From Octopus vulgaris (taxonomy: Eukaryota), in the NCBI GenBank assembly GCA_951406725.2, contig OX597828.1, positions 28,768,001 through 28,832,000 on the forward strand: a stretch of DNA of 64,000 nt, written 5' to 3'. The translations under genes were made by a program, and so were the position numbers. Shown in pieces: positions 25,256-63,822 of this stretch. The notes below the pieces were generated by a model. That model was not told where the DNA came from and searched no databases. It saw nothing but the letters and a program-made list of their open reading frames with translations. Position 1 is the first letter of the stretch. Every line of letters starts with the position of its first letter.

Positions 25256-26218
25256 ATATAAATGTTCTGAAAACTATTCACAGCCTTGGATTTTTTTTTT
25301 TATCTCATTCTAATATATATATATATATATATATAAAATTAATTTCCAGGTTGAGTATATTTGCTCTCCAGACAGTTTAAATCTATACTTGTGGTTGTAT
25401 CTACGTGGTTGGTTGTAGATTGTCTACGCATAAAGATAATAGTTTTAAATTCACTGGCATTTTAACTTAATAAGTACACCTTGTGTTTTGCGAAGTCTGT
25501 TTCGAGAGTGTATATAATTAAGTTCCATCCAAACTTCTTATATTTGTCCTCCGGCAGAAGACTGTTCTGCTTTATATTCAGCCCACCAATGATAAGAAAT
25601 CAAAAGCAGAAAACAATTCGTACGTGTTCCGGATGTGTATCTTTATTTTAAGATGTAAGCCTTGAGTTAGTTTTAATTTCGGCAAGTCTTCATAATATTA
25701 TGATAATTGATATTACCATTAGCAATTCGTTAGTTCTTCTCGTGCAAATCAACTCTGTATTTGGCGGAATTAATATAAACAAGATACCTTTATTCGATAT
25801 ACTAATTCATCAGTAAATATCTCAAACATATATGTACATATGGACAGACAGACAAATAGAAACACGCATCTCTCTCACAATATATATATATATATGTGTG
25901 TGTGTGTGTGTATTTGTCCCTGACCCATCGCATTACAACCGATCTTGGTGTGTTCACACCCCCGTAACTTAGCGGTTCGGCATTAGAGTCCGATAGAATA
26001 AGTACCAGGTTTACAAAGAATAAGTCCAGGGGTCGATTTCTTCGACTGAAAAGCAGTCAAAATGAATGAAACAAGTAAAAGAATATATATATATATATAT
26101 ATATATATATATATATATATATATATATATATGTAGGTCCCGGGTTGATTCGGGGTTAACCACAGTAAATAAGGTACTCAATACATAGCAGAGTAAAATT
26201 AATTTATTATATAGAAGG

Positions 26219-26269
26219 AGCTTCTACAGGACTAGAACTGTTTCATTCAAGAGAAATCTTCAGGAAGCT
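26219..26269 (-). ncRNA. Minimal type I hammerhead ribozyme motif (Penelope/retrozyme type)
   Basis: Minus strand AGCUUC-CUGAAGA-U(UUC UCUU GAA)U-GAAA-CAG UUCUAGUC CUG-UA-GAAGCU. Perfect 6-bp helix I, intact CUGANGA/GAAA core, paired helix III and a GUA triplet. Confidence 0.8.
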
Positions 26270-26824
26270 GAATTATATATATATATATATAATTATATAT
26301 ATATATATATATATAATTATATATATATATATATAATTATTATTATTATTATTATTTGAGGTAATATTATTCCTAACTTACAGGGGAAAATTCAATTTAG
26401 AAATACTAAATCAAATTTCAGAAAATATAATATATATATATAAAAATTAGAAAAAAGCACCTTTTATCAATTCAAAACGAACAATTAAATTACGCTATCT
26501 AGAAAATTACATATAATAGAAATATTAAAATTAAAATAACAATAATATATATATATACACACACACACATTCATACACAACCTAATCTCAAATTGTACGT
26601 ATTTAATTTTTTTATCAATTATAGAATAACACCATTTTTCCTTATTACGGGACTAAATACAACATAAGATTTAATTTATATCCACACACGAACATCAGAT
26701 TCTGCACGATTCGTGTGTACAGTTGACTCATTGCTCAATTTGCTTTTAGCCGTTGTCTTGTATACAGGTTGCGATCTGGTATGCATTTTCAAATACTACA
26801 GTTATTTTGGGTTTATATTGGGAT

Positions 26825-27208
26825 GGAAGCACTCCGTCGGTTACGACGACGATGGTTCCGGTTGATCCGAATCAACGGAACAGCCTGCTCGTGAAATAAA
26901 CATGTAAGTGGCTGAGTACTCCACAGACACGTGTACCCTTAACGTAGTTCTCGGGGATATTCAGCGTGACACAGAGAGTGACAAAGCCGGCCCTTTGAAA
27001 TACAGGTACAACAGAAACAGGAAGTAAGAGTGAGAGAAAGTTGTGGTGAAAGAGTACAGCAGGGATCACCACCATCCCCTGCCGGAGCCGCGTGGAGCTT
27101 TTAGGTGTTTTCGCTCAATAAACACTCACAACGCCCGGTCTGGGAATCGAAACCAAGATCCTATGACCGCAAGTCCGCTGCCCTAACCACTGGGCCATTG
27201 CGCCTCCA
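26825..27208 (-). mobile_element. tRNA-derived SINE family C, full length (~385 bp)
   Basis: The minus strand starts with the tRNA-like head TGGAGGCGCAATGGCCCAGTGGTTAGGG...GGTTTCGATTCCC and ends ...GTAACCGACGGAGTGCTTCC. The head is shared with 1498-1600. Confidence 0.85.
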
Positions 27209-60860: not shown

Positions 60861-63477
60861 AAAAATGGTATTTATTTCGGCTCTTAACATTCCGAGTTCA
60901 ATTCCCACCTTTCCTCTCTTCACGATCCGATAAAAATCAATACCATTCAAATATTGGAAGCAAATGTACTATGTTACACCCACCTGCCTCGGAACTTCAG
61001 ACCTTGTGCCTAAATTTAAAAATCATTTTATAAAGATTAAGTATACAATGGAATAATTTTTATGCTTGAATATGGAGAATATGAGTCTAGCAATTTGGGC
61101 AGAAAAATGTAAAACTTATAGGAATGCTATTAAGCTTTTTGATTGCGGATCGATCAAACTTTGCCTGGAATGTTGAAGGTGAGAGTGTTTAGATTTGAGG
61201 AAGCATTGCATTTCCAATTCTTATCTCCGCGAACCATTCGTTTGTATAGTGCCTGGTTAAACGTAGACTATGATAGGTTTTATATATATATATATATATA
61301 TATATATATATATATATATATATATATATGACGGGTAACTTTGGAACTATGCTTGGGTAAATTGATAAAAGTTGTAATAATTATTATACGTATGCCATAT
61401 TCCCTGATCTTACCCATGGGGAAAAAGTGTTCTGTAGGGATAGTCATTCGGAATACTTTGTTACGGATCCATAAGCTAGCTTCTACCCAAGTGATTAATG
61501 AAAATAAGAGAAAAACCTAATCTGTTAGCAAACAGCTTGCTTAAAGGGCATGTAAGGAATTGTTAACTAATTGCAGAGGCTTTTTTTCAGCTATAACCAA
61601 ATACTCATCTCTTCATCTTCCTGCACGGTCTTTTCTGTGTGTGTATGTGTGTGTGTGTTAAACATATTTGAGTTAAGGTAAAAAATGTGGAGAAAAAAGT
61701 ATTCTAATATCAAAGTGAAAGTAGCGTGTTTCAGTGGAGCAGAAAACCTTCACAAACTCTTGCTAAGAATACCACGCAACCGATCATCAAGTGATCGGTT
61801 ACGAGAAACTGAATTACAATATATACGTATGTATCCCACCATCGCTTGACGGCCGTTGTTGGTTTGCTTACATCCCCGGAACTTATTGTTTCAGCAAAAG
61901 AAACGATGTAGTTGATTAAGAAAAAAATATATACTGTGGGTAATTTGTTCGACTAAAATCCTTCAAAGAGGTGCACCAGTATGGCCGAAGACCAATGATT
62001 GAAACTGAAAGAAAGATGAAGGCAACAAACCAACAAAGGAACCACCTTTCTCAAATCACAACATACTGAATTGTAGGCGGATAGATTGAATAATGTGGTT
62101 CTCGGTTCCCAGTACATTGGGAAAATACAAAAGTGTAAGAGGTCAAATGCTCTTGTTCACTGGTCTGCTCGATGGTTTGTCTGATCATAGTCTAAACAAC
62201 AACAACAAATCATCACCGGTCATTCAACGATCAGCTACAGATGTCCAGATATGCCTATAACTGCCTATACAGAGACGTTTCGGTCTATCTGTCTGTATGT
62301 GTGTATGTGATGACAGTTTACAATAAAATAGATGATAGATGATCTCAACGTGTATTATCCAATAAAAACCACATAACAATAACAAAACGAATAAAAACAG
62401 ACCTTCGTTAATAATAGATATTCCAGTATTAGTTTTGATAATGTTATCAAATATCTTACTGTCTTATCTCTCTCTCTCTCTCTCACACACACACACGCAT
62501 TATATATATATATATATATATATATATATATATATATAATAATACACACACAACAATATCTGTAAATGTCTGTCTTTCTCTGTATAAACACACACACATA
62601 TACATACACACATACTATATTGTATTATATAGAGTGAAATAGAATAAAGACAAAACTACAAAAATAAAGCATAAATTAAAAAAGAATTTCACAGCATATA
62701 TAAAGTATTATTATCTTTAGTAATAATGACATAAAATATTTCGTTTATTACCGAAAATCAAATGATTTCAGAATGCAAAAGTCGATGAAATTGTCTACTC
62801 CTGGAAGCATCAAACATCGCGTTATGATTTACATGGTATATAAACACAAATTAGTTGAAATTATTATTATTATCATTATTATTATTATTGTCATTGCTAT
62901 TCCTGTTGTTGTTGTTGTAATCATTTGTTATACATGCTGTTGTGACGATTCATAGCTTCTTTTCATGATTATTTTGCTGCTATCAAATTCCACACACACA
63001 CACACACACACACACACACACGCACTTAATAGGTTCTCATCAAATGTATATATTAGTATAAGCGTTCGCAGGTCACAGCCTAGCATAGAATTTTAGACGC
63101 AGTGAATGAGGAACGCATCTTCTGAGTGTTGAAATGATTCGCTAGAAATAACAACCGAATTTTGACCAAGTTAAAATGGCAAATGTTTGCAAAAAAAATT
63201 GGTGGATTAATTATGGATGTGATGTCATTATTTTTTAATTCTGTTTCGTAAAAATTTATGTCGTTTGTAGCAATTATTCCATGTAATAATCACTGACTGT
63301 CTGCTTTTGTGATGACGGGAGACCAAGAAGGGCCTTTGTGCAATTCGGTGGGTTTTATTACCAGAAGACATGTTAGTCTGTAAATATTGTCTTTTCCTTA
63401 TAGATGCATATATTTGACACTGACATCTACTAGCAATCCCTACATACATATATACATTATACAAAATACATATGCAT

Positions 63478-63610
63478 AGGCGCAAGAGTGGCTGTGTGGT
63501 AAGTAGCTTGCTTACTAACCATATGGTTCCGGGTTCAGCCCCACCTTGGGCAGACCAAAGCCTTGTGAGTGGATTTGGTAGACGGAAACCGAAAGAAGCT
63601 CGTCCTGTAT
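63478..63610 (+). mobile_element. SINE family A, 5' half with internal deletion
   Basis: AGGCGCAAGAGTGGCTGTGTGGTAAG...GGATTTGGTAGACGGAAAC. Confidence 0.85.
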
Positions 63611-63756
63611 ATATATATATATATACATATAGGAAAGTAAAAGCAGGGAAAATTACATCGAAAGTTCACAGTGGAGATATGTCCATAATATAAATAATAT
63701 TGTATTAATAAATGACTATATAAAGTATAACTATGATTATTTTAAAAGATTTGGGA

Positions 63757-63822
63757 GATCTTATGATCGTTTCATCAATATAAGTTAACTATTATTAGAA
63801 AGTACATCCATTCGTCAGAGGT
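63757..63822 (-). ncRNA. Degenerate minimal hammerhead motif
   Basis: Minus strand ACCU-CUGACGA-AUGGAUGUA...UAUAUUGAU-GAAAC GAUC AUA-AGAU. The core is intact. Helix III has G-to-A and helix I has one mismatch. Confidence 0.55.

Follow-up and report, generated by a model that had tools for sequence, protein, structure and literature searches.

We identified six hammerhead ribozyme motifs in a 64,000-nucleotide (nt) stretch of the Octopus vulgaris genome (contig OX597828.1, positions 28,768,001 to 28,832,000; hereafter, the window) that are best explained, with a probability of roughly 0.8, as the hammerhead-bearing 3' ends of several families of Penelope-like elements (PLEs). The motifs would be remnants of the pseudo-long terminal repeats (pseudo-LTRs) of these retroelements, decayed, solitary, likely 5'-truncated and inserted in the (TA)n tracts of the octopus genome. 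The window has a G+C content of 36.8% and plentiful microsatellites and interspersed repeats. Because no PLE open reading frame (ORF) is linked to any of the cassettes, their assignment to PLEs draws on the form of the motifs and on their context. The motifs, their strand, tails, (TA)n ends and inverted copies, and the high copy number and majority letters of two families, were observed directly, whereas the link to a PLE ORF, the clade and the cleavage are inferred.

All six motifs lie on the minus strand, and the window coordinates by which we refer to them (26219, 40852, 44411, 44687, 49417 and 63757) mark their left (3') ends. A first-pass annotation had described six hammerheads with a CUGANGA core; all six motifs are present, but the exact core was found in only three of them (base 3 at 26263 and 49485, CUGAAGA, and at 63818, CUGACGA). 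The other cores are off by one base (CCGACGA at 40885, U4C; CUGGUGA at 44442, A6G; UUGAUGA at 44758, C3U). GAAAC and the UA at positions 16.1-17 are present in every motif, and with them G12, A13, A14, A15.1, U16.1 and H17. Helix III is short, palindromic and suited to pairing between two copies, as in the pseudo-LTR hammerheads of PLEs. Its self-complementary positions number 12 of 16 in 26219, 8 of 9 in 40852, 4 of 4 in 44411, 6 of 8 in 44687, 8 of 8 in 49417 and 6 of 8 in 63757, with calculated energies of -1.7 to -12.8 kcal/mol for the self-duplex and of 0 for the monomer hairpin in five motifs (-1.4 in one). Helix I spans 6 base pairs (bp) at 26219, 4 bp at 44411, 3 bp at 44687 and five of the first six positions at 49417, and is broken at 40852 and 63757. 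Four motifs pass a PLE-type descriptor with the type I order of helices, whereas the helices are broken in 40852 and 63757. To call the motifs unrelated, as was done at first, is slightly too strong, as 49417 and 63757 have 13 of 14 letters in common around helix III.

Table 1. Hammerhead cassettes, related copies and one predicted exon in the window (positions counted from its first letter).
Feature	Position	Strand	Description
Type I hammerhead, best of six	26219..26269	-	Exact core at 26263; U.U base of helix II; 16-nt near-palindromic helix III; 6-bp helix I; predicted cut after 26225
3' tail of 26219 cassette	26133..26218	-	Ends on (AT)25 at 26083-26132; (TA)n also on the 5' side
Decayed hammerhead (40852)	40847..40894	-	U4C; helices I and II broken; predicted cut after 40856; 37-nt tail to (AT)34
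Whole 44411 cassette	44320..44580	-	Multi-copy U-rich leader (44449-44580), hammerhead and 95-nt tail to (TA)47 at 44225-44319
Classical minimal hammerhead (44411)	44406..44448	-	U-rich leader; bulged A; 4-bp helix II closed by G-C; helix III ACGU; 4-bp helix I
Whole 44687 cassette	44581..45030	-	Multi-copy across its length; head-to-tail upstream of the 44411 cassette
Hammerhead with 49-nt helix II (44687)	44686..44763	-	Window copy C3U; predicted cut after 44691
Inverted partial copy of 44687 cassette	45039..45116	+	44908-44862 joined to 44677-44642, omitting 184 nt with the hammerhead
AT-rich 3' tail of 49417 cassette	49280..49416	-	Ends on (TA)n/(TAA)n
Hammerhead (49417)	49417..49491	-	Exact core at 49485; U.U base of 44-nt helix II region; perfect palindrome ACGAUCGU; predicted cut after 49423
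Second copy of 49417 tail, without hammerhead	52626..52772	+	96.6% over 147 nt; ends on (TA)n
Predicted-gene exon (context outside the elements)	53547..53689	+	117-amino-acid predicted Octopus vulgaris protein; remaining exons outside the window
Decayed hammerhead (63757)	63758..63822	-	Exact core at 63818; 37-nt AU-rich helix II region; C.A at 15.2-16.2; weak helix I
Inverted copy of 63757 tail	63960..64000	+	Matches 63691-63649, 82% over 44 nt; clipped by the window end

The surroundings of the motifs also fit PLE ends. A (TA)n tract lies on the 3' side, 39-144 nt past the predicted cut, in five of the six cassettes, compared to a background of 14.7% of unmasked positions (binomial P = 4e-4); the tail of 63757, for example, reaches (TA)n 137 nt downstream. 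The claim that the motifs sit beside (TA)n therefore stands for five of them, but not for 44687, which instead ends on the 44411 cassette that it abuts head-to-tail (373 nt). Tandem insertion of PLEs beside older copies has been described (PMC6765202). Inverted copies of element ends were found upstream of two of the six cassettes (45039-45116 and 63960-64000; Table 1). The window thus contains several marks of the pseudo-LTR hammerheads of PLEs, namely a site near the 3' end, a tail, a (TA)n target and inverted partial copies. A supposed GIY-YIG end upstream of 63757 was dropped, as this stretch is the inverted copy of the tail and has no Pfam match. The DNA upstream of the 49417 motif reads in translation as a fragment resembling a long interspersed nuclear element on the opposite strand, with no library match. 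The second copy of the 49417 tail, a single case, may be a copy of a 3' cleavage product. It begins in a 4-nt microhomology spanning the predicted cut site of 49417 and, within 52603-52772, is joined to an inverted 26-nt duplicate of 52503-52528.

Public sequence data indicate that at least some of these cassettes belong to large families. We placed contigs of four public runs on positions 44325-45260 at a likeness of at least 80%, a segment that covers two of the six motifs (44411 and 44687). Three of the runs, with three species labels, were guessed to be DNA (X1, X3 and X11) and one to be RNA (X14); variants are those among 40 of 205 rows, with minority letters outside them. The high copy number claimed initially was borne out in both families tested. 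By contigs, 44411 and 44687 are dispersed high-copy families; 49417 has a second copy of its tail in the window. The summed depth of the 44687 cassette in X1 was 2,600-41,000 over 44581-45028 versus 172-437 at 45029-45124. The majority letters of this family include C3 in 91-100% of the depth of the four runs, giving CUGAUGA. They also restore the helix III palindrome ACAGCUGU (92-97% of depth), mend two pairs of helix I (57-91% and 97-99%) to yield a 5-bp helix, and mend one pair of helix II (from -10.5 to -13.5 kcal/mol). Because the majority letters restore C3, the palindrome and the helix I pairs, the window copy of 44687 is, judging from its sequence, a degraded copy from a family whose hammerhead is intact. 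For 44687, this is the kind of consensus that the first-pass annotation had called for.

The 44411 family differs in its core. The summed depth on its motif was 2.3 million in X1, 4.2 million in X3 and 0.55 million in X11. In these three DNA runs, the peak on the 43-nt motif rose 9-18 times above its own tail and 600-1300 times above the leader, as expected if many subfamilies hold the motif while their flanks drift. Loose contig ends gather at 44405-6 and 44447-8, which are the edges of the motif. No sites at which many molecules start or stop were listed, although contigs are unable to reveal them. Set against the depth of long contigs in the same comparison (about 50-85, 30-60 and 12-20), the motif depth gives on the order of 10^4 copy-equivalents, although summed depth does not equal copy number. 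In X14, the run guessed to be RNA, the 44411 motif (44421-44452) was 1,500 times deeper than 44687, versus a factor of 50-100 in the three DNA runs; this is no more than a lead, as expression levels do not follow from contig depth. Pattern scans with the 44411 motif or with a motif of short interspersed nuclear elements (SINEs) gave no matches in two viral, two metagenome and one prokaryote collections. At position 6 of the core (44439), the majority letter is U rather than the G of the window copy or the canonical A, with 95.0, 94.2, 95.6 and 98.6% of the depth in the four runs and the support of at least 128, at least 128, at least 128 and 113 contigs. This was the sole variant row inside the motif among the 40 of 205 rows listed. 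Everywhere but at this position, 44411 fits the consensus of the minimal hammerheads of animals (Cervera and de la Pena, 2014; PMC4209133, Fig. S3), including the U-rich leader, the bulged base after A9, the G10.1-C11.1 pair and the palindromic 15.2-16.2. A6 was, by contrast, present in 44 of the 44 rows examined in that figure.

Changes in this part of the core are known to be costly. A natural A6C core in phage Bcep176 has a kobs below 0.1 per min (Perreault et al., 2011; PMC3088659), and low activity is reported for every single mutant of the CUGA turn (Roberts et al., 2023; PMC9901934). Because mutants of position 6 and of the CUGA turn show low activity, the 44411 family is predicted to cut poorly, yet its majority sequence retains the rest of the core and the helices. 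The family is likely a slow or protein-dependent cutter or, alternatively, its fold is kept mainly for recognition by the protein of the element. The description as ribozyme-processed thus appears doubtful for the most abundant family. Unlike the phage case, a single sequence with C, the 44411 family is a very high-copy animal repeat with U6. We found no report of an A6U hammerhead core, nor a mention of it in passages of PMC10085705 or by a term search of PMC11014351; the main catalogue of PLE hammerhead variants (Lunse et al., 2017) was outside the comparison and may list it. A6U is likely a new core variant. More tentatively, an A6U hammerhead could be one of the most abundant repeat motifs of the octopus, fixed and conserved across subfamilies and three species labels, either crippled or rescued by a protein, in which case PLEs would select the fold for protein recognition over fast cutting.

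The U at position 6 could have another explanation. Together with the U at position 7, it creates a second box (UUGAAGA, a U3 variant) in the 44411 sequence, and a row with U3 and G8 is on record for Saccoglossus, so that the active core could be this shifted box; alternatively, the majority letter could be that of one over-amplified dead subfamily, as few contigs can dominate the summed depth. We consider both versions unlikely. In the shifted register, only two or three pairs of helix II remain, scattered along it, with three bases unpaired ahead of helix I, and the number of contigs with U6, in four runs and under three species labels, speaks against a single subfamily.

A PLE origin of the cassettes is in good agreement with what is known of these elements. 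Cervera and de la Pena (2014; PMC4209133) found minimal hammerheads by the thousand in animal genomes, belonging to many families and mostly single, and ascribed them to truncated PLEs; monomers did not cleave, and dimers did so at a low level. The window motifs resemble them in the type I order, short helix I, palindromic helix III, many families and mostly single copies, although the helix II regions of 37-49 nt in three of our motifs exceed those of any row examined there. The supplementary file of that study that we searched has no octopus entry. Craig et al. (2021; PMC8557442) described 5' truncation, inverted 5' copies and tails in PLEs and list (TA)n as the target of 26 of 27 Hydra families, one of them from O. 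bimaculoides (Hydra-1_Obim). The hammerheads of the Hydra clade lie, as here, about 100-200 nt from the 3' end, with a palindromic helix III of 7-10 nt and a (TA)n target. By our count, 14 of 26 Hydra rows have the U...U base of helix II also seen in 26219 and 49417, and U10.1-U11.1 is a known active variant (PMC3088659). Further, the 3' half of 40852 is identical over 20 of 20 nt to the hammerhead of Hydra-2_aJap (0 of 100 shuffles; the row was picked by eye from 34). Unlike the window copies of 40852, 44411 and 44687, the 34 Hydra rows listed all have CUGA. The motif of Hydra-1_Obim is absent from the window, and the likeness to the Hydra clade is one of hammerheads. The form of the motifs, the (TA)n tracts at five of six and the inverted copies support the proposal of several Penelope-derived families that target (TA)n.

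Experiments with a PLE protein suggest how such stumps could form. The protein nicks AT-rich DNA and starts reverse transcription in the RNA downstream of the hammerhead, and the hammerhead cuts only in the presence of the protein, whereas insertion in vitro persists in catalytic mutants (Frangieh et al., 2024; PMC11167929). By extension from other PLEs, the reverse transcriptase (RT)/GIY-YIG protein of the octopus elements would nick AT-rich DNA, and reverse transcription would begin within the RNA, 40-145 nt downstream of the hammerhead. Because reverse transcription would usually stop early, a hammerhead and tail would most often be left behind, at times with an inverted partial copy on the 5' side. 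Within the parent elements, pairing of two hammerheads through the palindromic helix III would lead to slow cutting, perhaps aided by the protein; the solitary copies in the window are predicted to be inactive or nearly so.

The first-pass annotation had also viewed the cassettes as retrozymes and as non-autonomous elements. Animal non-LTR retrozymes are similar in being non-coding and PLE-related, with a type I hammerhead and, possibly, dispersed monomers (PMC7229834; bioRxiv 10.64898/2026.07.22.740005). Their definition, however, requires tandem units that each contain a canonical hammerhead, as well as circular RNA, whereas the motifs in the window are solitary and minimal. No tandem array or second direct copy was found within the window for any of the six, and we rejected the retrozyme reading for the absence of tandem units. 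The canonical helix I with a loop-loop contact was not seen either, helix I being 3-6 bp long and the three motifs scanned locally giving no Rfam hammerhead. The cassettes need not be non-autonomous, as a solitary hammerhead is what an autonomous PLE usually leaves behind after 5' truncation (PMC4209133). It is rather improbable that part of the set, chiefly the 44411 family, consists of short non-autonomous elements, complete in themselves (SINE-like, or retrozyme monomers), that make use of PLE proteins. The very high depth on a short motif, the fixed 3' end at (TA)n and the lack of an ORF nearby would be in keeping with such elements, as would the dispersed retrozyme monomers related to pseudo-LTRs (bioRxiv 10.64898/2026.07.22.740005). 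The absence of any tandem unit or second direct copy argues against it, as does helix I, which is of the minimal type and not of the canonical type found in retrozymes (PMC7229834). In addition, the depth of 44411 and 44687 declines unevenly upstream with no shared start listed, though contigs show starts poorly.

Within the window, the statistical support depended on the descriptor, with an excess over shuffled sequence for the PLE-type descriptor and no clear one for a generic descriptor. Compared with 40 local shuffles, the generic descriptor with an exact core recovered 26219 alone (one match versus a shuffle mean of 0.12-0.2). The PLE-type descriptor, composed after the motifs had been seen, gave 11 matches versus a mean of 5.0 in 200 shuffles, five of which reached 11. 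With C15.2 added, four matches were left, all among the six motifs (mean 0.68; one of 200 shuffles reached four), and the exact core with C15.2 gave two (mean 0.04; 0 of 200). The case for hammerheads from the window evidence alone is moderate.

Several results weigh against the assignment of the six motifs to PLEs. Motifs 40852 and 63757 fail the PLE-type descriptor, and none of the six folds better than its own shuffles (z from -1.49 to +0.87). No Rfam hammerhead appeared among the best 150 of 429 rows for the whole window, in which the top rows are microRNA matches driven by microsatellites, nor in two local scans covering three motifs. None of the cassettes carries a remnant of an RT or GIY-YIG domain. 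The absence of such ORFs from the window, as first reported, was upheld in 21 read-through frames near the motifs, in 128 of 230 stop-free stretches and in a six-frame motif scan; there is one weak RVT_1 match at 16270-16515 (minus strand), 10 kb from the nearest motif. A homologue search with a 68-amino-acid frame upstream of 44687 gave none among 67 candidates at E 1, a weak test. The supplement of Craig et al. (2021; PMC8557442) contains none of 11 short motifs used as queries, and the window in turn lacks two motifs taken from the octopus Hydra and Naiad entries there; on these comparisons, none of the cassettes can be linked to a family already published. Copy number outside the window is based on two of the six cassettes (44411 and 44687) and on summed contig depth, a rough measure that is not equal to copy number. 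Finally, the low activity of A6 changes argues against efficient processing in the largest family. The shifted register of its core, unlikely as it is, is a further point against the overall reading. It is improbable that the two weakest motifs, 63757 and 40852, arose by chance in AT-rich sequence, leaving a smaller set of true motifs: the pair fails a descriptor that in its loose form yields five matches per shuffled window and has fold z-scores of +0.51 and +0.87, but 40852 has its 20-nt identity to a Hydra hammerhead and 63757 has an exact core, an inverted tail copy and a helix III in common with 49417.

Other features of the window provide context for the PLE ends. The translation of 53547-53687 matches at 100% part of a predicted Octopus vulgaris protein. 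All six hammerhead motifs are antisense to this predicted plus-strand gene, an arrangement with a chance of 1 in 64 (one-sided). Such a placement could stem from the loss of sense-oriented ribozymes in introns, the gene model being a lone hypothetical prediction. SINE orientation counts, taken as a control for strand bias, were uninformative (11/6, 4/6 and 1/3). At 26357-26544 and again at 52453-53198, a pair of AT-rich modules of 73 and 102 nt, 87-92% alike at the two sites, is arranged in one order and lies between (TA)n tracts; one of these sites forms a 350-nt fold-back. The paired modules are likely further PLE ends without a hammerhead. We also noted remnants of the helix-turn-helix domain of Mos1-type transposases (Pfam HTH_48) at 273-530 (plus strand) and 9055-9348 (minus strand), as well as tandem duplications of about 266 and 511 nt (13914-14449 and 17531-18532), in which the descriptor scan found no hammerhead. 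Long local inverted repeats (fold-backs) of an unnamed family are located at 48287-48548, 23983-24139 and 11078-12023.

Scattered minimal PLE hammerheads are known and expected in octopus, and the six-motif finding as first stated is ordinary. The idea of a hidden layer missed by annotation was overstated: 190 annotated PLE families account for 6.83% of the O. vulgaris genome (Bonar et al., 2026; PMC13282606 and its supplement), and an octopus Hydra PLE with a hammerhead and a preference for (TA)n has already been published (PMC8557442 supplement). The cassettes are likely, for the most part, new members of this known kind, with A6U as the one probable novelty. The PLE hammerhead is slow in vitro (PMC4209133), absent from Naiads (PMC8557442) and carried by elements whose catalytic mutants still insert in vitro (PMC11167929). 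A successful U6 family, changed at a position where mutants are nearly inactive (PMC9901934), would provide a natural test of whether cutting matters, and it would escape every search based on CUGANGA.

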